From NCBI GenBank assembly GCA_013003065.1, contig JABDLI010000179.1:1-62839 (forward strand): a stretch of DNA of 62,839 nucleotides, in the 5' to 3' direction. Numbering within the stretch: the first letter of the stretch is position 1; each line of letters opens with the position of its first letter. Below the pieces are notes generated by a model that saw only the letters and a program-made list of their open reading frames with translations, had not been told where the DNA came from and ran no database searches. A program made the translations under genes and the position numbers. This DNA comes from Phycisphaerales bacterium (GTDB lineage Bacteria; Planctomycetota; Phycisphaerae; Phycisphaerales; SM1A02). Shown here piece by piece: positions 19,369 to 55,430 of the stretch.

Positions 19369-19397
19369 TTGCGGGGCTCCGGAGCGGCCCCTATCCT
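19369..19397 (+). promoter_or_regulatory. sigma70-like promoter TTGCGG-N17-TATCCT, 7 nt upstream of ATG 19405 (leaderless candidate)
   Basis: It has the same CCCCTATCCT box and the same spacing as the yggS promoter. Confidence 0.45.
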
Positions 19398-19404
19398 TCA
19401 TCGC

Positions 19405-19635
19405 ATGCGACGGATCCGAAGAATCCTCGGGCGACACGCGACGATCGGCCGCCGGCTGCTCCCGCTGCTCGCGTGGTTGACCCCGGCGGTGGCCTTCGCG
19501 CAGGAAACCGCGCCGCCACAGCCGAGCCTCGGTCGGTACCCCGCGATCTGGGTCGGGTACCTCGTGATCATGGTGCTGCTCGCCATCGTGGTTGCCGTCA
19601 GCCTCATGCCGAGCAAACGAGGCCACCAGGACTAG
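19405..19635 (+). CDS. small membrane protein (signal peptide plus C-terminal TM), function unknown
   Basis: 76 aa: MRRIRRILG..LLPLLAWLTPAVAFAQE...IWVGYLVIMVLLAIVVAVSLM. It has a leaderless-type promoter. The reading frame is the 3' part of track ORF 19222..19635. Confidence 0.5.
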   Translation: MRRIRRILGRHATIGRRLLPLLAWLTPAVAFAQETAPPQPSLGRYPAIWVGYLVIMVLLAIVVAVSLMPSKRGHQD

Positions 19636-24380: not shown

Positions 24381-26954
24381 ATGACCGTTCCCAGCACACT
24401 TGCCGGCGTCCTGCTGTTCTGCCTGGCGTTGGCAGCGGCGACGATGCTGCTCGTCTTCGTGCTCGTCCCTCTCTTCAAGGGTCTCGGCTACCTGATCGGG
24501 ATGCTCTTCCGCGGCATCGGTTGGCTCGTCGCCCACCTCTTCGAGTTCGTGGCCGGCACGATCGGCGACGCGGTCCGGTTCATCGGTGCGATCCTGGCCT
24601 CGGTGCTGCTGGCGCCGCTGGCGGTTCTGAACGTCCTCATCGGCCGATGGTCGGCCGCCGGTCACTTCGCCGACTCCGTCAGCCGCGAGTGCAAGGTCGG
24701 GGCGGGCTGCATATACCGGATGCTGATTCGACGGCCGCTCAAGCTCGTCATGCTGCACGGTCTCCTCGAAGGCGTGGAGCAACGCGTGCCCGAGGCGATG
24801 GCGGCGGCGCCCACGTCGGACAAGCCCCGCAAGCGTCTCGGTCAGTTCCCCGGATACACGATCGTCGGCTCCCTCCGGGGCGGCGGCTCCGGCGCGAAGC
24901 TGTTCATCGCGACCCCCGACCCCGCGATGCGTGCGCGGTACGCCTCCATGCCCGAGCGTGTCGTCATCAAGTGCTTCGCCCTCAGCGAGGGTTCGAGCCT
25001 TCCGCAGATGCTCCGCGAATCACGCGCGCTCGAGTCGGCCAAGCAGCTCGGTCTCGTGTTCGACCACGCGATGGAAGAGCATCGCTTCTACTACGTGATG
25101 CCGTACCACGCCGGGGACCACCTCTCGATCGTCACCCGCCAGCTCCACGGTGAGTCGGACACTGCCGGCCTCGAAGGCGATCGTCTCCGCACGGCCATCG
25201 GCTACCTGTGCGATCTCGTCCACACGCTCGCGGTCTATCACCGCGGTGGTCTCTGGCACAAGGACGTGAAACCCGAGAACATCATCATCCACAGCGGGCA
25301 TGCGCACCTCGTCGACCTCGGCCTGGTCACCCCGCTGCGATCGGCGATGACGCTCACCACGCACGGCACCGAATACTTCCGCGATCCCGAGCTCGTGCGG
25401 CAAGCCCTCCGCGGCGTCAAGGTCCATCAGGTCAACGGCGCGAAGTTCGACATCTACGCCGCCGGCGCCGTGGCGTACTTCATCGCCGAGAACACCTTCC
25501 CGCCCCATGGCGCGCTCAGCCGCTTCGGACGCCGCAGCCCGGATGCGTTGCGTTGGATCATCCGTCGTGCCATGGCCGACTACACCCATCGCTACGAGCA
25601 CGCCGACGAAATGCTCGCGGATCTTCGGTACGTCGCCGGCGCCTCCGACCCGTTCGCCGTGAAACCCGCCGACCTGCCGTCGCTGCGTGGTGCCGCCGTC
25701 GAGCCGCCTCCGCTTCCGTCCCCCCCGGACGCCGTGGCCGCCCGCGTCGGTTCGCCGGTGCCCCCGCCCCCGCCCCCGCCGACGCCGACTCCGGTTTTCA
25801 ATCCCGAGCCGGCCCGACCGGCCGCCATGGGCACGCCCGAGATCACGGTGACGAACTGGTGGACCGGCGCGTATCGCGTGGAATCTTCGGCGGACGCGGT
25901 CGTTCCGCCGGCCCCCACGCCGTCGATCCGCGACCAGGCGCGTGCGATGCGGCACGAGACCGCGAAGCTGCGTCGCGACATCCGGTCCGGGCGTCTCAGC
26001 GCCCGGAAAGCCGCTCGCGCGCAGGTGAAGGCCGCACGCTCGCGGGCCCGCGAGGTCCGCGCACGGGCTCGGTCCCACCGGCATCGTGCGGTGGCGGAGC
26101 GGCAGCCGTCGTTGGCGCTCATCGCGCTCGGCCTGGTGGCCGTGCTCTTCTTCGGCGCCATCACGGCCGGCGTCGTCCTGGCCCGCTCCTCCTCCAACCG
26201 CAGCTACGCCAAGACCACCGTGTCGACACCCGGATCCAACCTGCCGGTTCTCATCGTCGACGATGGCCGCAACGCGACCGAAGCGCACCTGCAGCGGCTC
26301 GAGAAGGTGGCGGAGTCGTACGAGCGTCGCGGGTTCGACGTCGTGCCCGGTCTGGTTCCCGATCGGGGCACCCTCCACGGTTGGCTGGAGACCTGGGAGC
26401 AGGCGAAGTCGGGCAGCGCTGAGCGGAAGGCGGCCGACGATCTCATCGAAGCGGCGATGGCCGAGATGAACGTCTACGGGCTCGTCCTCGTGAGCGAAAC
26501 CGACAGCGGCCGGCTCGACCACAACCTCATTCGCTCGACGGCGCCGGGCGCCAAGCAACGCCGCCACCTCGAGCTGCCGGCCCCGCCGTCGTCGCTGCCG
26601 TTTCTGGTCGTGAACGATCATCCCACCCGGTACGCGCCCGAGACGTCCGAACGGGTCGAGCAACGGCTTGCGGAATATCGCCTCCACGGCTGGAACATCG
26701 TGAGCGACGACGCCCTCGAGGCGGACATGCGTCCGCTGCTGCCCGCGGGCCCGGTCGCCGCCGCCGCCGCGTTTCCTGCCCGCTTTCATCTCCGGCTCGC
26801 CCAGGACGGTTTCGCAGGGATCCTGCACGTCTCCGCGCCCGGCGGTGCCGGCCCCGTGGCGGAGCGGATCGAGGTGAAGGTGATCGAGGCCGAGTCGACG
26901 CCGGCGCTTCCCGATGGCGACGCACGGGCCCACCGGCACCGCGACGCGGCCTGA
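24381..26954 (+). CDS. membrane Ser/Thr protein kinase with duplicated C-terminal extracytoplasmic module
   Basis: GAGGAG lies 8 nt upstream. It has N-terminal TM segments and a Hanks kinase core (HKDVKPENIII, DLGLV, GTEYFRDPE). A Pro-rich linker, a further TM (LALIALGLVAVLFFGAITAGVVLA) and a ~250-aa C-terminal region follow. Confidence 0.85.
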   Translation: MTVPSTLAGVLLFCLALAAATMLLVFVLVPLFKGLGYLIGMLFRGIGWLVAHLFEFVAGTIGDAVRFIGAILASVLLAPLAVLNVLIGRWSAAGHFADSVSRECKVGAGCIYRMLIRRPLKLVMLHGLLEGVEQRVPEAMAAAPTSDKPRKRLGQFPGYTIVGSLRGGGSGAKLFIATPDPAMRARYASMPERVVIKCFALSEGSSLPQMLRESRALESAKQLGLVFDHAMEEHRFYYVMPYHAGDHLSIVTRQLHGESDTAGLEGDRLRTAIGYLCDLVHTLAVYHRGGLWHKDVKPENIIIHSGHAHLVDLGLVTPLRSAMTLTTHGTEYFRDPELVRQALRGVKVHQVNGAKFDIYAAGAVAYFIAENTFPPHGALSRFGRRSPDALRWIIRRAMADYTHRYEHADEMLADLRYVAGASDPFAVKPADLPSLRGAAVEPPPLPSPPDAVAARVGSPVPPPPPPPTPTPVFNPEPARPAAMGTPEITVTNWWTGAYRVESSADAVVPPAPTPSIRDQARAMRHETAKLRRDIRSGRLSARKAARAQVKAARSRAREVRARARSHRHRAVAERQPSLALIALGLVAVLFFGAITAGVVLARSSSNRSYAKTTVSTPGSNLPVLIVDDGRNATEAHLQRLEKVAESYERRGFDVVPGLVPDRGTLHGWLETWEQAKSGSAERKAADDLIEAAMAEMNVYGLVLVSETDSGRLDHNLIRSTAPGAKQRRHLELPAPPSSLPFLVVNDHPTRYAPETSERVEQRLAEYRLHGWNIVSDDALEADMRPLLPAGPVAAAAAFPARFHLRLAQDGFAGILHVSAPGGAGPVAERIEVKVIEAESTPALPDGDARAHRHRDAA

Positions 26955-26983: not shown

Positions 26984-27015
26984 ACGCCCCGCCGGGAGCC
27001 CGGCGGGGCGTTTTC
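26984..27015. terminator. bidirectional intrinsic terminator between the kinase gene and flgH
   Basis: ACGCCCCGCCGG-GAGC-CCGGCGGGGCGT has an 11-12-bp stem. It is followed by TTTTCGG on the plus strand and GCTTGTTTG on the minus strand. Confidence 0.7.
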
Positions 27016-27038: not shown

Positions 27039-27758
27039 TCAGAAGGCGAATATCGTGTCCAGGATCTTCGCGATGATTCCCTTCTCGCTGCTCTTCTTCA
27101 GCTCTCCCTCGTGCACCTTCTCGATCGCGAGATCGTGAAGCTGCGTGGAGAGCACCGTGTTGACGGCCGTCACGTCGATCGGGCGACACACGCCGGTCAC
27201 CTTGAGCAGCGACTGCTCCTCGTCGGTCTGGATTCGGGTGCGGGCCTCCAGGATCAAGTTGCCGTTCGGCAGGACGTCGATCACCTCGGCCGTGAGCCGC
27301 GCGGTGAACTCGTCCTCGCGTTTGTAATCACCCTCGCCCTGGAAGTCCTTCGTCAGGCCGACGTCGACCCGCGGAAGACCCGTCGTGCGGCCGGCATTGA
27401 TCTGGAGATTCAGCAAGTCCGAGAGCTGCAGGTCCGGCCAGGCCGCGATGCGGCCGTTGAGGTCGTAGTCTTTCTGGGTTTCCAACTCCTGGGAGCTCTC
27501 GGCCCGGCTCGACTCCCGCACGACGATCACGATGAGGTCGTGCTTGTTGAAGACCCGCAGCTCGGGCGGTGAGATCGCGAACATGCTGACGTCCAGAAGT
27601 GCGTGCGGTTCGCGGCCGTCGGTGCGCGGCAGCGAACGGCTGGCGGCGCGGGCGAGCAGGCCGCTCGTCGGCGCCGGCGTCGACGCAAGCGTGACGCCGG
27701 GAACTGCGATTGCCGTGGTCGCGGCCAGGGCGATGAGGGTCTTGCGGGGGTCGTTCAT
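27039..27758 (-). CDS. flgH: flagellar L-ring protein FlgH
   Basis: It has a signal peptide and FlgH-typical sequence (DLIVIVVRESS...LTAEVIDVLPNGNLILEARTRIQTDEEQSLLKVTGVCRPIDV). ATG 27758 overlaps the flgA stop (ATGA). Confidence 0.88.
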   Translation of the reverse strand: MNDPRKTLIALAATTAIAVPGVTLASTPAPTSGLLARAASRSLPRTDGREPHALLDVSMFAISPPELRVFNKHDLIVIVVRESSRAESSQELETQKDYDLNGRIAAWPDLQLSDLLNLQINAGRTTGLPRVDVGLTKDFQGEGDYKREDEFTARLTAEVIDVLPNGNLILEARTRIQTDEEQSLLKVTGVCRPIDVTAVNTVLSTQLHDLAIEKVHEGELKKSSEKGIIAKILDTIFAF

Positions 27759-28861
27759 GAGCCTCTTCCTTCCGAGGGGTTGCGGGCAGCGGCGGTCCCG
27801 GAGGCCGTGCTGAGGTCGAGCGTCAGTTCGCCGGGGGCGATGACGGTGGCCGTGAAGACCGAGCGTTCGCCGGGGCGACGCAGCTCGACCGGCTCGCCGA
27901 GGGCTCCATCTTCGAGTGCTTCGGCGTTCATCCGGATCACCATGCCGCCCACGAGGCACTGCACGTTGACGCGGTCACCGCGTTGAACGAGCGCGCGTTG
28001 CCGCACGTGCTTGGACCGCACGATCGCGCCGGCCTTCAATCGTTGGGTCGTCACGCGGCCGGCGATCGCCCCCGGCGTCGCGGCGATGGCGTGTTGACTC
28101 GGGGGAAGCCACCGCGTCTCCGTCCCGAAGTCATCGGCCGTCAGGACACCGCTGCGTGGCACCTCCCGACGCATGAATGCGACGGGCGCTTCGACGAGAG
28201 GCTCGAAGGAAACACGCGTGCGGTCGACGATACGCCCGTTCTCCCAGATCCGCACCTGCAGGCCGACGCGATCGCTGCCGTAGTCCGTCTGCGGGATGAG
28301 CTCGAAGTCGGCGCCATGGGAGGGACGCTCGAGCGTGGCAGCGTCCCGGGATTCGAATCGCAGCCGCAGCGAGCCCGGCGTCACGCCGAGTGCCAGCGCG
28401 GTCTGGCGGGCAATCGCCCCGCCCAGATCGTTGCCGGCGGCCAGATCGGCCGCGTTCACCTCGAGCGCGTTCGACACGCGTTCGCCGCGACGGACGGGCG
28501 GGTTGACGGCGACCGCCCGCATCGCGCCGGGCGCGGCCGTGCCGGCGGCGGCCGCCGGACGCACGAGGATCGCCCGTCCGCTCAGGTTCACACGGCCCCA
28601 GTGGACGCCCGCGTTGTCGAGCCGGCGTTTGACGTCGTCGACCGAGATCTCCAGCAGCGTTGCCGGATCGCGCTCGGCAATGACGGTCGAGGCGAGGGCG
28701 GCGGCCTCCGCGCCGTCGAGGCGGGCGATGGCTCCGAGCGTGACGCTCGTCTGCTGTGCGTCCAGCCGGACCGATGAACGCAGACGAATGGTGTCGGCGG
28801 AGGCGGGCAGGGTCGCCAGCAGGCCGAGGGCGGCGGCGGTCAGTGACGTAAGACGCATCAC
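27755..28861 (-). CDS. flgA: flagellar basal-body P-ring formation chaperone FlgA (long form)
   Basis: It has a signal peptide MMRLTSLTAAALGLLATLPASA and a C-terminal SAF/FlgA region (TQRLKAGAIVRSKHVRQRALVQRGDRVNV...GEPVELRRPGERSVFTATV). It sits between flgG and flgH. Confidence 0.78.
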   Translation of the reverse strand: MMRLTSLTAAALGLLATLPASADTIRLRSSVRLDAQQTSVTLGAIARLDGAEAAALASTVIAERDPATLLEISVDDVKRRLDNAGVHWGRVNLSGRAILVRPAAAAGTAAPGAMRAVAVNPPVRRGERVSNALEVNAADLAAGNDLGGAIARQTALALGVTPGSLRLRFESRDAATLERPSHGADFELIPQTDYGSDRVGLQVRIWENGRIVDRTRVSFEPLVEAPVAFMRREVPRSGVLTADDFGTETRWLPPSQHAIAATPGAIAGRVTTQRLKAGAIVRSKHVRQRALVQRGDRVNVQCLVGGMVIRMNAEALEDGALGEPVELRRPGERSVFTATVIAPGELTLDLSTASGTAAARNPSEGRGS

Positions 28862-38453: not shown

Positions 38454-40652
38454 CTACTGTCCGAATCGGCGGTAGAGTTCGTCGTCGATGAAGACGCGGA
38501 GCCTCTGGGCGCTGGGGTCGTCGTCACCCGCGTCGATGGCCGCGTCGATGGCATGGAAGGCGAGCGCGGGGTCGTCCAGGATCATCTGCAACGCCGCGGA
38601 CATGAACAACGCATCGATGTCACTGCGATCCGAACGCAGCCGTTCGCGGTAAACGTCCAGCAGACGCTGCACCTGATCGAGCACCAGTGCATCGGTCGGG
38701 ACGTCGAAGAGCGCCGACGCGTCGTCGACCATTGCTCGCCGCATCGCCATGGCCGCGTCGATGTCGTAGCCGAGCCGTCCGGCCGCGATCGCGTAGCCGA
38801 TCCGGGCGGCCGCGTCGTGGGGAACGGCGTACACGAGGTCGGCGAACGTCGCGAGCGCCGCCTCGAGCTGATCGTCGGCCAGCTGGTCCCACCCCTGGTC
38901 GATGGTCGGCACGAGCGGCACGTAAGTCGACTGCGCCGGCGCATAGACCGGCGTCGACGTCCGGTACGAGGAGTACCAGTACGGGCGTACGTAGGTCGTG
39001 CAATAGCCGCAGTCACATCCGAAGCCGTGACCGGCGCGGTAGACGTGCCGGAAGCGGGGGCCGTGGTATCCGTACCCGCCATACGAGCGGTGGTACGACC
39101 GCCAGGGGCGGGCGTAGGAGATCGAGCAGGTGCGATAGTGCAGCCGGTAGTGATGCCAGGGCCGGTGAAAGCCGTGCCCGAAATGGAATCGATGACCGTG
39201 GTGACCGAAGCCGATGCTGAACCACCACGGGGCGTGGTCTGCGTAGTACCCGAACGAGAACGACCAGCCGTGCCAGCGGGAGCCGTAGTAGTAATCCAGG
39301 TGGTGCCCGTGGTGTCGGTGGTGTCCGTGGTGTCCCCCGCCGCCGTGCCACCAGTGCCAGTCCGGCCAGTCGTCGTCGTGGTGGTCGCGTCGCTCGGTCT
39401 CGTCGAAACCCGTGTGGTAGGTCGTGTCGTGGGCGTCGTCCGGTGCGGTCGGCGGCGAGCCGGAAGACCCGACGCTGCCACCGGGACTCGGTGGCCGTCG
39501 GTTCGGGCGTGATCCGGGCACGCCAGGAATCGTCGGGAGGTTGTGGCCACGCATCCCCGGCGTCAGCGATCGCGTCGCGTCGCGGACGCGAGGCGGACGG
39601 CTCGGCTGGTTGCCGCCGAACGACCGATTGCTTCGGCCCGATCGGTTGGTCGCGGCGGGCGACCGGTCCGGCCGGCGGGGGTTGAGGTCGATCGTTCGGC
39701 GTGAGACGTCGCGATTCGACGTGGTGGGATACGGCCGTTGCGGTTGAGGAGACGGACGCTGCCACGTGCGGTTGCGTGAGGAGTTGCTTCTCGTGCGTGG
39801 CATGGAGGGCCGCTGGAGCCGGCTCGGTGAGAGGTCACGCTGGCTCGGGCGGTTGAACCGCTGACGCGATGGGGAGCGGCTCGGCTGCTGCCGGTCCGAC
39901 GTTCGCGGGGGCGGGCTCTGGGCGCGGCGACTCGAGGGCGGTGCCACGCGGGTCGGACGCTGGGCGCTCTTGCCCCGGTTGGACGGCGGCGCGGCTCGCG
40001 TGGGACGCTGGGGGCTGTTGCTCCGTCCCGACTGCGTGCGGCTGGAGCTCCTGGGGGGGCTCTGCGCGCTCTTGCGGCTGGGGCTGGACGACGAGCGGCT
40101 GGCGTTCTTGCTTCGGCTCGCCTGCGCGCGGCTGGAGCTCTTCGGGGGGCTCTTCACGCTCTTGCGGCTGGGGCTGGATGACGCGCGGCTGGCGTTCTTG
40201 CTGCGGCTCGCCTGCGCGCGGCTGGAGCTCTTCGGGGGCTTCACGCTCTTGCGGCTGGGGCTGGACGACGCGCGGCTGGCGTTCTTGCTGCGGCTCGCCT
40301 GCGCGCGGCTGGAGCTCTTCGGGGGGCTCTTCACACTCTTGCTGCTGCGGCTGGACGACGAGCTCGCGTTCTTGCTGCGGCTCGGCTTCGACCGGCTCGA
40401 GCTGGGCGGGCTCTTCGCGTTCTTGCTGCTCCGGTTCGAAGACGACCGGCTGGCTCGCGACTTGGCCTGCTTCGGCGGCCCGTCGACCGCCATCGCGGGT
40501 GGGTCGCCGGACCCGATGCCCGGCCCCATCGAGTCGGCTGCCGCCGCCTCCGGGCTCAGGGTCAGTCCGAAGAGGGCCACGATCACCAGCAGGGACGCCC
40601 CCGCGATCCTTCGTCGCCCTGCCCACCCGATCATTCGCGCGTTGTGCATCAC
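38454..40652 (-). CDS. secreted low-complexity protein: Ser/Arg/Lys tandem repeats, His/Trp/Tyr/Gly-rich block, helical C-terminal domain
   Basis: A signal peptide is followed by ~330 aa of S/R/K/P-rich sequence with 29-30-aa repeats. An HGHH/W/Y-rich block follows, then a TPR-like helical C-terminus. Third codon positions are almost all G/C in this frame. Confidence 0.7.
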   Translation of the reverse strand: MMHNARMIGWAGRRRIAGASLLVIVALFGLTLSPEAAAADSMGPGIGSGDPPAMAVDGPPKQAKSRASRSSSNRSSKNAKSPPSSSRSKPSRSKNASSSSSRSSKSVKSPPKSSSRAQASRSKNASRASSSPSRKSVKPPKSSSRAQASRSKNASRASSSPSRKSVKSPPKSSSRAQASRSKNASRSSSSPSRKSAQSPPRSSSRTQSGRSNSPQRPTRAAPPSNRGKSAQRPTRVAPPSSRRAQSPPPRTSDRQQPSRSPSRQRFNRPSQRDLSPSRLQRPSMPRTRSNSSRNRTWQRPSPQPQRPYPTTSNRDVSRRTIDLNPRRPDRSPAATNRSGRSNRSFGGNQPSRPPRVRDATRSLTPGMRGHNLPTIPGVPGSRPNRRPPSPGGSVGSSGSPPTAPDDAHDTTYHTGFDETERRDHHDDDWPDWHWWHGGGGHHGHHRHHGHHLDYYYGSRWHGWSFSFGYYADHAPWWFSIGFGHHGHRFHFGHGFHRPWHHYRLHYRTCSISYARPWRSYHRSYGGYGYHGPRFRHVYRAGHGFGCDCGYCTTYVRPYWYSSYRTSTPVYAPAQSTYVPLVPTIDQGWDQLADDQLEAALATFADLVYAVPHDAAARIGYAIAAGRLGYDIDAAMAMRRAMVDDASALFDVPTDALVLDQVQRLLDVYRERLRSDRSDIDALFMSAALQMILDDPALAFHAIDAAIDAGDDDPSAQRLRVFIDDELYRRFGQ
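40038..40392 (-). repeat. in-frame tandem repeat (periods 90, 90, 87 nt, then a degenerate copy)
   Basis: Units start at 40038, 40128, 40218 and 40305 (plus-strand gcggctggagctc...). Each encodes ~KSPPKSSSRAQASRSKNASRASSSPSRKSV. Confidence 0.8.
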
Positions 40653-50535: not shown

Positions 50536-50826
50536 ATGAACAAGGGCCAACTGATCGAGGTGGTGGCATCGGAGCAGGGTATCTCGAAGGCAGCGGCAGC
50601 GCGAGCGGTCGAAGCGGTCTTCAACGCCGTGGTCACCGGGCTGAAGGGCGACGGCTCCGTCACGCTTGCCGGCTTCGGCTCGTTCGCCACCAAGGACCGC
50701 GCCGCCCGGCCCGTACGCAACCCGTCGACCGGACTCCTGATGACGATCGAGCCCTCCGTGACCGTCCGCTTCCGCCCCAGTCAGGCGTTGAAGGACGGGT
50801 TGATGCCGCAACTCACCGGGCAATGA
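50536..50826 (+). CDS. HU family DNA-binding protein
   Basis: MNKGQLIEVVA...GFGSFATKDRAARPVRNPSTG is canonical HU/IHF. Confidence 0.9.
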   Translation: MNKGQLIEVVASEQGISKAAAARAVEAVFNAVVTGLKGDGSVTLAGFGSFATKDRAARPVRNPSTGLLMTIEPSVTVRFRPSQALKDGLMPQLTGQ

Positions 50827-53779
50827 TGTTCACGATCTTCCCCGGCACGACAATGAGCTTGCGCACGGTCAGCCCCTCGAGCAGCGACTGAACCCGCTCG
50901 TCCGCCAGTGCATGCTCGCGGACGGCCTCCTCGTTGGCGTCGGCGGGCACCGAGACGCGGCTTCGGACCTTGCCGTTGATCTGAATCGGCAGCTCGATCG
51001 TGTCGTCGTGAAGCATCGACCCGTCGAAGGATGGCCACGTCGCGTGGGCGATCAGGCTCTCGTGCCCCAGGCGTGAGAACAGCTCCTCGGCGAGGTGCGG
51101 CGCGAACGGCGAGAGGATGATCAAGAACCGTTCCGCGATGTCGAATGGCACGGGCTCGGGCGTCGCGACGAGCTCGTTCGTCAGCTCGATGATCTTGGCG
51201 ATCGCTGTGTTCAGCCGGATCCGGTCGATGTCCTGCTCGACTCCGGCGATCGTCCGGTGCAGGAGCCGCTCGAGGTCTTCGTTCTGCCGGTCGTCACCAC
51301 GCGGGGCGATCCGCCCGCTCGCCGCCCCCGTCTCCTCATCCACGAACAGCCGCCAGATCCGCTGGAGGACCCGGAAGAGGCCCACCATATCCCTTGTATT
51401 CCAGGGTTTGCTGGCCTCCAGCGGGCCCATGTACATCTCGTACAGACGGAACGTGTCGGCCCCGTACTCGGCGATCACGTCATCGGGGTTGACGACGTTC
51501 TTCAGCGACTTGCTCATCTTCGCGACCGTGCGGATGACCGGCTCGCCGGTCTCGATCTCGACGATCCGGTCACCGTCCTCGCGCACGGCGTCGACCGGCA
51601 CGAGCGACTTGTCGGGACGCTGGTAGGCGTGAGCGGTGATCATCCCCTGGTGGAAGAGCTGGCCGAACGGCTCGGGCGTCGAGATCAGGCCGTGGTCGTA
51701 GAGCAGCTTGTGCCAGAACCGCGCGTAGAGCAGGTGCAACACCGCGTGCTCGGCGCCGCCGATGTACAGGTCGACGCCGCCGACGTGGTGCGTGTCCGGG
51801 TCGAACGCGTCCGGTTCGGTGTCGGCTCGCGCACCGTCCCGTCGGGACAGCATCCAATAGCGCTCGGCCTCCCGGTCCACGAGCCGATCCTCGCAACGGG
51901 GGGAGCAGAACCGCAGGTAGTACCAGCACGAGCCGGCCCATCCCGGCATCGTGTTCGCCTCGCGGCGGACCGGCGTCGTCGGCGTCAACGCGGCCGACGT
52001 GACGCCCGCCTCGGCCGCGGTCGTGTTCACCCACGCCGTCGCCTTGCCGAGAAGCGGTGTCGGCGTCTCCGACTCGATCGGCGCGTAATCGTCCATTTCC
52101 GGCAGTGTCACCGGCAGATGATCGGCGTCCACCGGGTGGTGCATGCCGCTGTTGTCGAAGACCACCGGGAACGGCTCGCCCCAGTACCGCTGCCGGCTGA
52201 ACAGCCAATCACGCAGCTTGTAGTTCACCCGCGCGCGGCCGCTGCCGCTGGTCGCGAGCCACTCGATGATGCGTGTCTTCGCCGCGGCGGTTTCCAATCC
52301 ATCGAGCGAGACGCCGGCCCCGCTCGAGTTCACGGCCCGACCGGCGCCGCTGAAGAGCGTGTCGGGATCGTCGAGCGGCTCGATGGGCTCGACGACCGTG
52401 ACGATCGGAAGCTCGAACGCCCGCGCGAACTCGAAGTCTCGTTCGTCGTGCGCCGGCACCGCCATGATGGCGCCGTGCCCGTACCCCATCAGCACGTAGT
52501 CGGCGATCCAGATCGGAATGGCCGCTCCGGTCGCGGGGTTGCGGGCCGTGAACCCGGTGGGCACACCGGTCTTCACCTTGCTCTCCGCCTGGCGGTCGAT
52601 GTCCGACCGGTTGGCGGCGGTCTCGACGTACGCGCGGATGGCCGCCACGTCCGTTCCGGGGCGGGGCGTCGCCAGCATTCCGGCCACGAGAGGGTGTTCG
52701 GGAGCCAGCACCATGTACGTCGCCCCGAAGATCGTGTCGGGACGGGTGGTGTAGACCCGAAGCGTGTCCGGGGCATCCGGGGGCCCGTCGATCAGCGGAA
52801 AGTCGATCTCGGCCCCCTCGCTGCGACCGATCCACTCCCGCTGCATCGTGCGGGTGGACTCCGGCCACGAGACCCGGTCGAGATCTTCGAGCAGCCGTTC
52901 GGCGTACGCGGTGATGCGGAACATCCACTGCTTCAGCGGCTGGCGAACGACGGGATACCCGCCGCGTTCGCTTCGCCCGTCGATCACCTCTTCGTTCGCG
53001 AGCGCGGTGCCCAGCTTCGGGCACCAGTTGACGGTCTGGGTGGCGACATAGGCGAGCCGGTAGGAGTCGAGGATCACGCGACGCGTCGCGGGGTCGACCG
53101 CGTTCCAGTCCGGCCACCGGCCCTCGCCGGCGTGCGGGTCGGCATCAGCCGCGTGCTCGGGGTTCATCGCGATCACCCGATCGCCGCGGGCAAAGGCGGC
53201 TTCGAGATCGGCGATCGGCCGCGCTCGGTTGGCGTCGGGATCGAACCACGAGTCGTACGCCTTCAGCCAGATCCACTGCGTCCACCGGTAGTAGTCCTCG
53301 TCGATGGTGGCGAACTCACGTGACCAGTCGTAGCTGAAGCCGAAGCGTTTGAGCTGGCGGCGGAAGTTGTCGATCGCCTTGCGGGTCGTGATCGCCGGAT
53401 GGACGCCGGTCTGGATCGCGTACTGTTCGGCGGGAAGTCCGAACGCGTCCCACCCCATCGGGTGGAGCACGTTCGCGCCGCGGAGCCGGTGAAAGCGGCA
53501 GATGATGTCGCTCGCGGTGTAGCCCTCCGGATGTCCGACGTGCAGACCCGCGCCGGAGGGATACGGGAACATGTCCAGGCAGTAGAACTTCCGCTGCTGC
53601 GGGTCGAACCCCGCGTCGCCGGGATTGAGCGCGCGAAATGCGTCCGCCTGCTCCCAACGCTCCTGCCAGCGGGGCTCGATCTCGTTCGCGACGGCAGCGG
53701 AGTAACGATGGGGCGGCTGTTCGCGGCCGCGGGACGCCGCGTCGGCGGTGTCGGGCTTGGCAGAAGCGGGCTGGCTCAT
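50813..53779 (-). CDS. leuS: leucine--tRNA ligase
   Basis: A 988-aa class Ia aaRS with HVGHPEGY (HIGH) and KMSKS, a CP1 editing domain and LeuRS-typical layout. Confidence 0.95.
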   Translation of the reverse strand: MSQPASAKPDTADAASRGREQPPHRYSAAVANEIEPRWQERWEQADAFRALNPGDAGFDPQQRKFYCLDMFPYPSGAGLHVGHPEGYTASDIICRFHRLRGANVLHPMGWDAFGLPAEQYAIQTGVHPAITTRKAIDNFRRQLKRFGFSYDWSREFATIDEDYYRWTQWIWLKAYDSWFDPDANRARPIADLEAAFARGDRVIAMNPEHAADADPHAGEGRWPDWNAVDPATRRVILDSYRLAYVATQTVNWCPKLGTALANEEVIDGRSERGGYPVVRQPLKQWMFRITAYAERLLEDLDRVSWPESTRTMQREWIGRSEGAEIDFPLIDGPPDAPDTLRVYTTRPDTIFGATYMVLAPEHPLVAGMLATPRPGTDVAAIRAYVETAANRSDIDRQAESKVKTGVPTGFTARNPATGAAIPIWIADYVLMGYGHGAIMAVPAHDERDFEFARAFELPIVTVVEPIEPLDDPDTLFSGAGRAVNSSGAGVSLDGLETAAAKTRIIEWLATSGSGRARVNYKLRDWLFSRQRYWGEPFPVVFDNSGMHHPVDADHLPVTLPEMDDYAPIESETPTPLLGKATAWVNTTAAEAGVTSAALTPTTPVRREANTMPGWAGSCWYYLRFCSPRCEDRLVDREAERYWMLSRRDGARADTEPDAFDPDTHHVGGVDLYIGGAEHAVLHLLYARFWHKLLYDHGLISTPEPFGQLFHQGMITAHAYQRPDKSLVPVDAVREDGDRIVEIETGEPVIRTVAKMSKSLKNVVNPDDVIAEYGADTFRLYEMYMGPLEASKPWNTRDMVGLFRVLQRIWRLFVDEETGAASGRIAPRGDDRQNEDLERLLHRTIAGVEQDIDRIRLNTAIAKIIELTNELVATPEPVPFDIAERFLIILSPFAPHLAEELFSRLGHESLIAHATWPSFDGSMLHDDTIELPIQINGKVRSRVSVPADANEEAVREHALADERVQSLLEGLTVRKLIVVPGKIVNIIAR

Positions 53780-53810
53780 GGTCGGTTCGGCTCGAGCGAA
53801 GATGAAGGGG

Positions 53811-53847
53811 TGAAACGCAACAGGGCCCCGCGTGCGCGAGGCCCTGG
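53811..53847 (-). terminator. candidate attenuator terminator in the leuS leader
   Basis: On the minus strand, CAGGGCCUCGC-GCAC-GCGGGGCCCUG has an 11-bp stem and a tetraloop. It is followed by UUGCGUUUC and ends 32 nt before the leuS ATG. Confidence 0.45.
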
Positions 53848-53872
53848 AAGAGGCGATCGATCGCGCACCCGG

Positions 53873-53920
53873 TCAACGCCGGTCAAGACGAAGGAGAAGC
53901 TGGGTCAGGTGCGCTGTCAT
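53873..53920 (-). CDS. candidate Leu-rich leader peptide (MTAHLTQLLLRLDRR)
   Basis: 15 codons, 5 of them Leu (CTG, CTT, CTC, CTT, CTT). The ATG lies 7 nt after a GATACACTG -10-like box. It lies upstream of leuS and is flanked by alternative pairing segments. Confidence 0.35.
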   Translation of the reverse strand: MTAHLTQLLLRLDRR

Positions 53921-53927
53921 GACCGGC

Positions 53928-53933
53928 AGTGTA
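53928..53933 (-). promoter_or_regulatory. -10-like TACACT 7 nt upstream of the leader-peptide ATG 53920
   Basis: On the minus strand: GATACACTG-CCGGTC-ATG. Confidence 0.35.
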
Positions 53934-54008
53934 TCGGTCAGGAGCGTCGCCGCCAATCAGCGAATTCGCGATGCCGCCCGTATTCCGCTGCCCGTGGTCG
54001 GAGCCACG

Positions 54009-55415
54009 CTACCGCTGCCGTTTGCGGTGGACCTCGGTCAGGTACTTCTTGGCCTCGCCCACGAGGTAGAAGCTGCCCGTGACACAGATCAGGTCGTCGC
54101 GTCCGACGGCCCGGGTTGCCAGATCGATGGCATCGGGAAGGTTTCGCGCCACCTGGCTCATCTTGCCGCTGATCTCGGAGAACTGCCGCTGCAGCTCCTC
54201 GGGATCCGCCGCCCGGGGATTGCCCTTCGCGCGGGTGAAGATGATCTTGTCACCCCCGAGGGCCGCCTTCGTGAGCATGCCGGCGACGTCCTTGTCCTCG
54301 CAGCACCCGAACACGCACACCATGGAGTCGTAGGGCACGTGCGCGCCGACGCACCGCATCAGCGCGCCGATGGCGACGGGGTTGTGCGCACCGTCGACGA
54401 GAATCCGCGGCCGGTCCCAGAGCAGCTCCATCCGTCCCGGCACCTGCGTCGCATTCAGCCCCTCGAGCATGGGCACCTCGGGGCACTCGAATCCGGACGA
54501 CTTGAGTGCATCGACCGTGGCCAGCGCGAGCCCGCAGTTGATGGCCTGATGCTCGCCCGGAAGCGGCACCGGCAGGTGCATGAACTGACTGGTCTCCGAG
54601 ACGAGACACACGCGGCTGTGCGGCCCGAGATCGGCGGTGGCGCCGAACCGGCAGCTGAACTCGATGTCCTTGCCGATCATCCGCAGCGGCGCGCCGACCT
54701 CCTCGGCTTTCTGGCGAAGCACTTGCTCCACCGCCTCGCCCTGCGAGAACGTCAGCACCGGCACGCCGCGTTTGATGATGCCGGCCTTCTCGGCGGCGAT
54801 CTCTTCGATCGTCGCGCCGAGCAGGTGCGTGTGATCGAGGTCGATGTGGGTGATCACCGAGACCTCGGGTGTGATGATGTTCGTCGAATCAAGCCGCCCG
54901 CCGAGCCCCGTCTCCACGATGGCGAGGTCGACCGCCTGCTCCGCGAAGTGCTTGAAGGCGATGGCGGTCATGAGCTCGAAGAATGTCGGCTCCAGGCCCT
55001 CCGACGCGACGACCTCGGCCGTCTGCCGCATGAGCTCCGTGAACTCGGCCCGCCCGATCATCTGTCCGTTGATCGCAATCCGCTCGCGCACGTCGATCAG
55101 GTGCGGGCTCGTGTACTGACCGACCGCGTACCCGCAGCCCTTGAGCATCGCGGTGGTCATCGCGACCGTCGAGCCCTTGCCGACCGTGCCGGCGACGTGG
55201 ACCATCCGCACCTGCTCGTGCGGATTGCCGAGCGCGTCCATGAGCGCCCGCATCCGGTCGAGCTTGAACGTCTTTTCGTCGTAGCGCACGACTCGCATCC
55301 GCTCCACGTCCGCGTGCTCGTAGAGGTAGCGGGTCGCGGCGGAATACGTCTTGATCGCGGAGCGGTCGCTCGAGGTGCGACCACCGCGCCGGGAGGAGGA
55401 GGCGGCTGGACTCAT
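54009..55415 (-). CDS. folC: bifunctional folylpolyglutamate synthase / dihydrofolate synthase
   Basis: Mur-ligase P-loop HVAGTVGKGST and FolC-typical layout. Confidence 0.9.
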   Translation of the reverse strand: MSPAASSSRRGGRTSSDRSAIKTYSAATRYLYEHADVERMRVVRYDEKTFKLDRMRALMDALGNPHEQVRMVHVAGTVGKGSTVAMTTAMLKGCGYAVGQYTSPHLIDVRERIAINGQMIGRAEFTELMRQTAEVVASEGLEPTFFELMTAIAFKHFAEQAVDLAIVETGLGGRLDSTNIITPEVSVITHIDLDHTHLLGATIEEIAAEKAGIIKRGVPVLTFSQGEAVEQVLRQKAEEVGAPLRMIGKDIEFSCRFGATADLGPHSRVCLVSETSQFMHLPVPLPGEHQAINCGLALATVDALKSSGFECPEVPMLEGLNATQVPGRMELLWDRPRILVDGAHNPVAIGALMRCVGAHVPYDSMVCVFGCCEDKDVAGMLTKAALGGDKIIFTRAKGNPRAADPEELQRQFSEISGKMSQVARNLPDAIDLATRAVGRDDLICVTGSFYLVGEAKKYLTEVHRKRQR

Positions 55416-55424
55416 GGACCGAGC

Positions 55425-55430
55425 AGTGTA
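55425..55430 (-). promoter_or_regulatory. -10-like TACACT 9 nt upstream of the folC ATG 55415
   Basis: On the minus strand: GTGATACACTG-CTCGGTCC-ATG. Confidence 0.33.

Follow-up and report, generated by a model that had tools for sequence, protein, structure and literature searches.

How is leuS, the gene of the leucyl-tRNA synthetase (LeuRS), controlled in a bacterium of the phylum Planctomycetota? The regulation of synthetase genes outside the Proteobacteria, Firmicutes and Actinobacteria is almost unknown, and the question is raised here by a 62.8 kb stretch of DNA from a Phycisphaerales bacterium (68% G+C; the whole stretch is called the window below), in which 229 nucleotides (nt) lie between the end of folC (54009) and the leuS ATG (53779). 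The analysis of this gap pointed to a leader in which a ribosome translating a short, leaderless open reading frame (ORF) would decide, according to the supply of leucine, whether transcription stops at a hairpin or continues into leuS. We put the probability of this reading, a ribosome-mediated and Leu-responsive transcription attenuator of leuS, at about 60%. The start of transcription, the translation of the ORF, the termination at the hairpin and the response to leucine are features that we infer from the DNA and from its comparison with related loci.

All the elements of the leader lie on the minus strand. The promoter would consist of a −35-like hexamer, TTGGCG (53951..53956), located 17 nt 5′ of a −10 box, TACACT (53928..53933), which forms part of a conserved CCGATACACT. 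The ORF, MTAHLTQLLLRLDRR followed by UGA, occupies positions 53873..53920, and transcription would start at or next to A53920. Directly 3′ of the stop codon is the box CCGGGUGCGCGA (53861..53872), which would serve as the 5′ strand of an antiterminator. Further downstream, GCCU (53851..53854) would pair with GGGC (53844..53841) to form the basal helix of that antiterminator, as suggested by duplex and fold calculations and by covariation. The leader closes with a hairpin of 11 bp and −22.8 kcal/mol, CAGGGCCUCGC-GCAC-GCGGGGCCCUG (53821..53846), found by a terminator scan, and with the interrupted U-tract UUGCGUUUC (53812..53820), visible in the sequence and reported by the same scan. A preliminary description of the locus had placed a promoter, an ORF, pairing segments and a hairpin here, and rechecking on the minus strand located each of them where it had been reported: TACACT at 53933..53928, then 7 nt and the ATG at 53920; 15 codons up to the TGA at 53875..53873; the segments GCGCACC (53914..53908), GGUGCGC (53869..53863), GUGCGCGA (53868..53861; segment 2 of that description, corresponding to the box) and UCGCGCAC (53839..53832); and the 11-bp hairpin (53846..53821) followed by TTGCGTTTC. 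On the two sides of the gap, the folC stop codon was read at 54011..54009 (TIGR01499 of NCBIfam, 385 bits) and the regulated gene, leuS, extends over 50813..53779 and encodes 988 amino acids (TIGR00396 of NCBIfam, 964.6 bits), with an N-terminus, MSxP/MTKPT, that aligns with those of its relatives.

The course of events that this arrangement predicts begins with RNA polymerase, which would start from TTGGCG-N17-TACACT and produce a transcript beginning at or next to the AUG at 53920. A 70S ribosome would load on this 5′-terminal AUG and read the 15 codons, five of them for Leu and three of these the rare CUU. According to footprint and toeprint geometry, a ribosome with UGA in the A site protects about 9–10 nt past the stop. 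When Leu-tRNA is ample, the ribosome arriving at UGA would thus cover the first ~10 nt past the stop, that is, most of the box CCGGGUGCGCGA; with the box masked, the 11-bp terminator would form and transcription would end about 40 nt before leuS. When charged tRNA-Leu is scarce, the ribosome would stall on most of the Leu codons, 12–27 nt upstream of the stop, and the box would stay free (the last Leu codon of the related leader L162, 9 nt upstream of its stop, would be a borderline case). The free box would then pair with the 5′ arm, the loop and the first 3′ nucleotides of the terminator (−25.6 kcal/mol), allowing read-through into leuS. Of the two structures, the antiterminator would form first, the polymerase reaching its 3′ strand before the 3′ arm of the terminator. 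Since a stall frees the box, a low level of charged tRNA-Leu would raise the amount of LeuRS. If this is true, a working attenuator implies that transcription and translation are coupled on leaderless mRNAs in this Phycisphaerales lineage.

Is such a layout more than a coincidence? Genome and metagenome scans based on LeuRS provided 160 loci, and 171 loci in total were available for the motif search. Three further lineages were found to carry the leader, two of them (L162 and L163) reached via LeuRS and the third (L171) via a FolC homologue. The sample of leader-bearing loci therefore comprises four sequences, the window included. The LeuRS of the window is 69%, 71% and 63% identical to those of L162, L163 and L171, respectively, and the four proteins are 63–72% identical to one another. 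All four loci display the same succession of elements: a −35 hexamer, 16–17 nt, CCGATACACT, 7 nt, an ATG, a short ORF, UGA, a GC box, a hairpin with a U-tract and leuS. The hairpin starts 26 nt after the stop codon in the window and 27–30 nt after it in the other three. Comparison of the upstream regions showed a short Leu-rich ORF kept in L162, L163 and L171 together with compensatory changes in the helices. A scan of all the loci for a short ORF with at least three Leu codons and a terminator upstream of leuS returned only the window, L162 and L163, L171 having been added later, and the loci of the LeuRS scan contained no carriers of the leader beyond those reached through protein look-ups. 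The two closest relatives, P0001/L161 (LeuRS 97% identical) and P0122/L167 (99.9%), are on contigs cut off within the 5′ end of leuS or shortly before it and thus fall outside the leader comparison. The shorter LeuRS of L161 (955 amino acids versus 988; GCA_013043745.1, JABDNR010000172.1, 1-61) is an artefact of the contig edge and not a different start.

These comparisons bear on the possibility that the ORF arose by chance and that the hairpin is simply the terminator of folC. The hairpin does lie downstream of folC, and the statistics of the window by itself are modest (p about 0.01–0.04). Against this, the hairpin is located downstream of the conserved leuS promoter, the layout has been kept in four lineages whose LeuRS proteins are just 63–72% identical, and the apical motif of the hairpin is restricted to the four leaders among the 171 loci. 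Further, L162 has a gene other than folC upstream of leuS, and this gene is served by a terminator of its own, located before the leuS promoter; the second hairpin of L162 is therefore not the terminator of the upstream gene. The upstream gene in question (L162:668-2758) separates folC from the leuS leader; its product of 696 amino acids contains a weak P_proprotein domain, and its strong terminator, CGCCCCCGGCCGCTCGCGCCGGGGGCG plus CTCTTTTGC, is found at ~2790-2830. Coincidence combined with a folC terminator is thus strongly disfavoured and retains hardly any probability. The statistics of the window taken alone are suggestive, and the weight of the argument comes from the conservation in three further lineages: once the relatives are counted, the layout goes beyond chance.

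The next question is whether transcription and translation could start where the mechanism needs them to. The hexamer TACACT occurs six times in the 62.8 kb window, and five of the six occurrences lie 7–9 nt before an ATG or GTG. Four of these five open long genes, folC included, and the fifth opens the mini-ORF. With the looser pattern TANNNT-N5-11-ATG/GTG, 27 sites were found in the window; 15 of them start ORFs of 100 codons or more, 14 of which have the third-position G+C content (GC3) of real genes. These counts mark TACACT as an authentic −10 box of the genome, in which leaderless genes are the rule; the start of the mini-ORF is a typical leaderless one. The arrangement of this short ORF at the 5′ end is that of bona fide leaderless genes and would suit it for ribosome initiation. 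Examples of leaderless starts are at 55430 (−), 37702 (+), 56404 (+), 57954 (+), 40795 (+), 44758 (+) and 3347 (+). The folC start lies 9 nt past a TACACT, with a TTGATC 17 nt further upstream. Another leaderless start may be that of a 76-codon ORF, MRRIRRILGRHATIGRRLLPLLAWLTPAVAFAQ..., at 19392..19635 (+), opened by TATCCT-N7-ATG, whose product resembles a small secreted or membrane protein.

The relatives indicate that the promoter belongs to leuS. The element CCGATACACT is identical in L162, L163, L171 and a fourth relative, L166, and in each of the four loci with a leader the ATG of the short ORF is placed exactly 7 nt past the −10 box. The counterpart of the −35 hexamer, with a spacer of 16–17 nt, is TTGGCC in L171 and TTGATC in L162 and L163. 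L166 has no leader, and there the identical GACCGATACACT (1205-1225) sits 10 nt before the leuS ATG itself. In three other relatives without a leader, L164 (~1450-1470), L165 (~1475-1503) and L168 (~395-423), a degenerate promoter of the CCGATACACT type was found at the equivalent place, the −10 box of L168 having decayed to TCCCAG. The distance from the promoter to the leuS ATG in L164, L165, L166 and L168 is 6–13 nt. Because the same box adjoins the leuS ATG in relatives devoid of the leader, CCGATACACT is best explained as the leuS promoter, and the predicted terminator then stands between this promoter and leuS. Between the hairpin and the leuS ATG there are only 18–53 nt, which is too short for another promoter, and nothing promoter-like is present there. 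In that same interval, 53783..53800 (−) of the window and L171:4178-4196 share CGCT(C)GAGCCGAAYCC(G)AC, a sequence that L162 and L163 do not have; it may belong to the translation-initiation region of leuS, which has no Shine-Dalgarno sequence.

The position of the promoter also bears on a second possibility, namely that the unit is an independent small gene, producing a small RNA (sRNA) of ~108 nt or a functional peptide of 15 residues, with read-through into leuS being incidental or constitutive. The unit does have a promoter and a terminator of its own, and attenuator-derived sRNAs and leader peptides are known, such as rnTrpL and peTrpL in Sinorhizobium (PMC6614838, PMC7298713). Set against this are the lack of room for a separate promoter just described, the direct use of the same promoter by leuS in relatives and the peptide itself, which is not conserved apart from the LRSPL shared by L163 and L171. 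A small gene would, in addition, leave unexplained why the box is complementary to the loop of the terminator, as described below. This explanation is accordingly judged to be very unlikely.

Given a leuS promoter upstream of the hairpin, can the RNA in between behave as a switch? The 11-bp GC hairpin and the U-tract predict that an intrinsic terminator separates the leader ORF from leuS. The whole window, both strands counted, has only four hairpins whose stem reaches at least 11 bp and whose tail is T-rich, and the sequence of this one is unique in it. When the stems of the four leaders are compared, all 44 of 44 cells are paired; compensatory changes occur at three pairs and one-sided changes at two. 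The apical half, GCCYCGC...GCGGGGC, is nearly invariant and, among the 171 loci, occurs in these four leaders only. The U-tracts of the relatives (UUUCUUUUC, UUCUUUUUUC and UUUUUUUCG) are stronger than that of the window. A repeat or mobile element was considered as a source of the hairpin and rejected, on account of its uniqueness in the window and the absence of any plasmid match to the gap. Elsewhere in the window, a perfect 12-bp GC hairpin at 26984..27011 with T-rich tails on each side, seen on both strands, resembles a bidirectional terminator; it is situated between a plus-strand gene ending at 26954 and a minus-strand gene at 27755..28861.

The alternative structure uses the box. In the window, CCGGGUGCGCGA pairs with 53839..53832 (8 bp) and with 53830..53828 (3 bp), the 3′ strand of the antiterminator being made up of the 5′ arm, the loop and the first 3′-arm nucleotides of the terminator. 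The counterparts of the box are CCCGCGCGCG(A/G) in L162 and L163 and GCCGCGCGA in L171, and the box starts 0–2 nt past UGA in all four leaders. When the nascent RNA was folded with its end 6 nt into the 3′ arm of the terminator, the antiterminator state reached −25.6 kcal/mol, versus −28.4 for the terminator state, in the window; the corresponding values were −26.9 versus −26.9 in L162 and −26.2 versus −26.4 in L163. In L171 the antiterminator fold amounts to −21.4 kcal/mol and the terminator hairpin alone to −20.1. The two structures are therefore predicted to be mutually exclusive and nearly isoenergetic, within ~3 kcal/mol in the window, L162 and L163 and close in L171. Compared with dinucleotide shuffles, the antiterminator duplex gave p values of 0.011 in the window, 0.002 in L162, 0.007 in L163 and 0.11 in L171, and the fold gave z-scores of −2.0, −2.8, −2.5 and −0.9, respectively. 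Covariation points in the same direction. The basal helix covaries with the 5′ arm of the terminator: the window has GCCU:GGGC, L162 has CUCU:AGAG and L163 has CGCC:GGCG. So does the base that ends the box, which forms an A-U pair in the window and L163 and a G-C pair in L162. The box is also complementary to the lineage-specific terminator loop, as GUGC:GCAC in the window and as UCC:GGA in L171, a match for which the terminator itself has no need. Thus, the leaders contain an antiterminator that excludes the terminator and whose 5′ strand, judging from the known footprint of the ribosome, could be masked at the stop codon. A swap test, in which each spacer was combined with the terminators of the other lineages, was not discriminating: every one of these terminators can pair with the conserved GC box. 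In the MAFFT alignment, the spacer and the hairpin of L162 were placed wrongly.

The preliminary description had proposed the classical geometry of 1:2, 2:3 and 3:4 pairings. One part of it, the 2:3/3:4 alternative, stood: it is conserved, and folding produced both states with similar energies in the window, L162 and L163. The 1:2 pairing between the ORF and the box may or may not form. Folding the full leaders gave a 1:2 helix in the minimum-energy structure of each of the four, at positions of the ORF that are not homologous, and its duplex differs from shuffles in the window (p=0.04) and not in L162 (0.34), L163 (0.90) or L171 (0.75), where it is no better than in shuffled ORFs; as a conserved element it was rejected. 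A leader deprived of this helix could be an independently evolved, minimal two-state attenuator in which the terminating ribosome on UGA would itself occlude the antiterminator strand of a leaderless transcript, with no protector helix taking part. This version is put forward tentatively, with the odds against it. If it were true, the leader would be the first ribosome-mediated attenuator in Planctomycetota and would provide direct genetic evidence that transcription and translation are tightly coupled in a Phycisphaerales lineage.

The remaining question is what the switch reads, and here the evidence comes from the ORF. The four ORFs have 15 (window), 16 (L162), 23 (L163) and 21 (L171) codons; all of them are open, in frame and terminated by UGA at the box, so that the positions of ATG and UGA are fixed in 4/4 leaders although the ORFs span 45–69 nt. 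As reported in the preliminary description, 5 of the 15 codons of the window ORF are for Leu (CTG, CTT, CTC, CTT and CTT); the other leaders have 4/16 (L162), 3/23 (L163) and 5/21 (L171). Leu is the commonest residue of the four leaders pooled, with 17 of the 71 non-initiator codons. Shuffling the nucleotides of each ORF gave p values for Leu enrichment of 0.012 in the window, 0.046 in L162, 0.38 in L163 and 0.036 in L171; the pooled value was 0.0002 for the four leaders and 0.006 for the three other than the window. Enrichment thus holds for the pooled data, the individual tests being weak. The preliminary description had also noted that CTT looked uncommon, and this codon indeed accounts for 5.3% of the Leu codons in 34 long ORFs of the window with high GC3. 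It makes up 8 of the 17 Leu codons of the leaders, with at least one in each of them; in leuS and folC of the genomes concerned, its share of the Leu codons is 0–9%. The sequence of the peptide is not conserved except for LRSPL..H.PS, common to L163 and L171; poor conservation is typical of leader peptides. In the leu leader of Salmonella, rare Leu codons raise sensitivity, according to Carter et al. (1986) as cited in PMC1183508.

The same data leave some room for a switch that is real and does not read Leu. It would sense the speed of translation or the availability of ribosomes, or else a factor acting in trans (LeuRS, a small RNA or a ligand) would bind the GC box. Any stall or failed loading would free the box, the best conserved parts of the leader are this box and the apical half of the hairpin, the ORF sequence is poorly conserved, L163 has no Leu enrichment and the 1:2 helix is unsupported; all of this would fit. 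Such a switch would not account for an ORF held open and in frame between a fixed ATG and a fixed UGA in all four leaders at lengths of 45–69 nt, for the pooled Leu enrichment of p=0.006 or for the presence of the rare CUU in every leader. The variable 45–69 nt before the box, moreover, contain no conserved aptamer-like structure, and neither a T-box nor any other Rfam family was matched. We regard a switch of this kind as unlikely, with a real though small share of the probability.

Several observations weigh against a Leu-responsive attenuator and explain why its probability is not set higher. The sample of four leaders is small, and the sequences are GC-rich and pair readily, which inflates apparent structure. 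The U-tract of the window, UUGCGUUUC, is interrupted. The antiterminator of L171 is no better than shuffles, and L163 has three dispersed Leu codons in 23. The lack of support for the 1:2 helix in the relatives means that, after the ribosome is released, the antiterminator could form, which would weaken the switch. Finally, the leader is missing in L164, L165 and L168, sister lineages of the same well-supported clade, and is hence dispensable.

This last observation has a bearing on the history of the leader. A neighbour-joining tree of LeuRS groups the window with L162 and L163 in a clade of 100% bootstrap support, of which the leader-less L164, L165 and L168 are also members. L171 is outside the tree sample, and its LeuRS is 62–65% identical to every member compared. 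The mixture of leader-bearing and leader-less lineages in one clade, together with the divergence of L171, suggests that the leader is old and that more than one loss has occurred. Its four carriers have 126–175 nt intercalated between the promoter and leuS, and the leader appears to behave as a cassette, which a given lineage either has or lacks between its leaderless promoter and the start codon. The occurrence of the same promoter with or without the leader in relatives represents a natural experiment on the gain and loss of leaders. If the leader works without a protector helix, this presence/absence polymorphism would show the insertion or loss of a cassette between a leaderless promoter and a start codon. 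The alignment of the four lineages defines a compact and testable element of about 110 nt.

How does this element compare with known systems? The Rfam search gave no match in the whole window at the gathering threshold and no leader family in the region at E≤10 or in L162, L163 and L171 at E≤1; the hits in the region were unrelated sRNA models with E>1. The Rfam tRNA model stayed below its gathering score throughout the window, and an 86-nt tRNA-Pro(CGG) reported by ARAGORN at 38586..38671 (−), inside a long ORF with high GC3 (38454..40652, −), is probably a false positive. The T-box (RF00230) was rejected as a candidate, with no match in the region at E≤10 or in the relatives at E≤1 and only 45–69 variable nt before the box. 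The T-box of leuS in Firmicutes resembles the leader in its place upstream of leuS, its terminator/antiterminator switch and its response to uncharged tRNA-Leu. Contrary to the leader, it binds the tRNA directly without translation and needs ~200 nt or more, with a specifier loop and a T-box sequence, none of which is present here. The enterobacterial leuL (Rfam Leu_leader) is closer in mechanism, since a Leu run containing rare Leu codons controls an intrinsic terminator through an alternative antiterminator; unlike the present leader, it controls biosynthetic genes and not a synthetase, is leadered with a Shine-Dalgarno sequence and has a well-defined 1:2 protector/pause helix. The E. coli pheM leader of pheST is a leader-peptide attenuator placed before an aminoacyl-tRNA synthetase gene, in which a low level of charged tRNA leads to more synthetase. 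This textbook case, which PMC1262725 also mentions, follows the same logic as that proposed for leuS, with Phe codons, a leadered transcript and a gammaproteobacterial host as the differences. The leaderless polycysteine short ORFs of mycobacteria are likewise sensory first cistrons in which stalling on cognate codons remodels the downstream RNA; unlike the leuS leader, they sense Cys and act on translation by unmasking a downstream ribosome-binding site (Canestrari et al., bioRxiv 10.1101/834739).

The nearest parallel is found in Streptomyces. The preliminary description knew of no peptide-mediated attenuator of leuS, which was wrong: classical attenuators have been predicted upstream of leuS in S. 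coelicolor and S. avermitilis (Seliverstov et al. 2005, PMC1262725), and RNA-seq mapping in S. lividans TK24 placed upstream of leuS a leaderless leuL2 (MRAVRLLLSEPR) with a hairpin and a U-stretch behind it (Droste et al. 2021, PMC8079986). In both designs, the leaderless transcript starts, in the present leader by prediction, at the start codon of the leader ORF, the peptide is short with an LLL run (12 residues in leuL2 versus 15 here), a hairpin with a U-stretch precedes a monocistronic leuS and the genome is of high G+C content with leaderless genes common (PMC8079986, PMC1262725). The differences are the phylum (Actinomycetota versus Planctomycetota, class Phycisphaerae), the stop codon, which abuts the antiterminator strand in the leader described here, and the bias of its Leu codons towards the rare CUU. 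The published peptide, compared by eye only, has no detectable homology to the present one beyond the Leu run. The shared LLL run is predicted by function and is not evidence of homology, and the origin of the leader is presumably independent of the Streptomyces one. A literature search found no attenuator described in Planctomycetota, the survey of aminoacyl-tRNA synthetase attenuators by Lopatovskaya et al. (2010), which may hold precedents, being outside that search. The leader seemingly represents a Planctomycetota case, the first in the phylum, of the known design of leaderless leuS attenuators. If the proposed reading is true, it provides a second, independent case of the leaderless design by which leuS senses leucine, and this design would then look like a solution that recurs where genomes are GC-rich and leaderless genes abundant.

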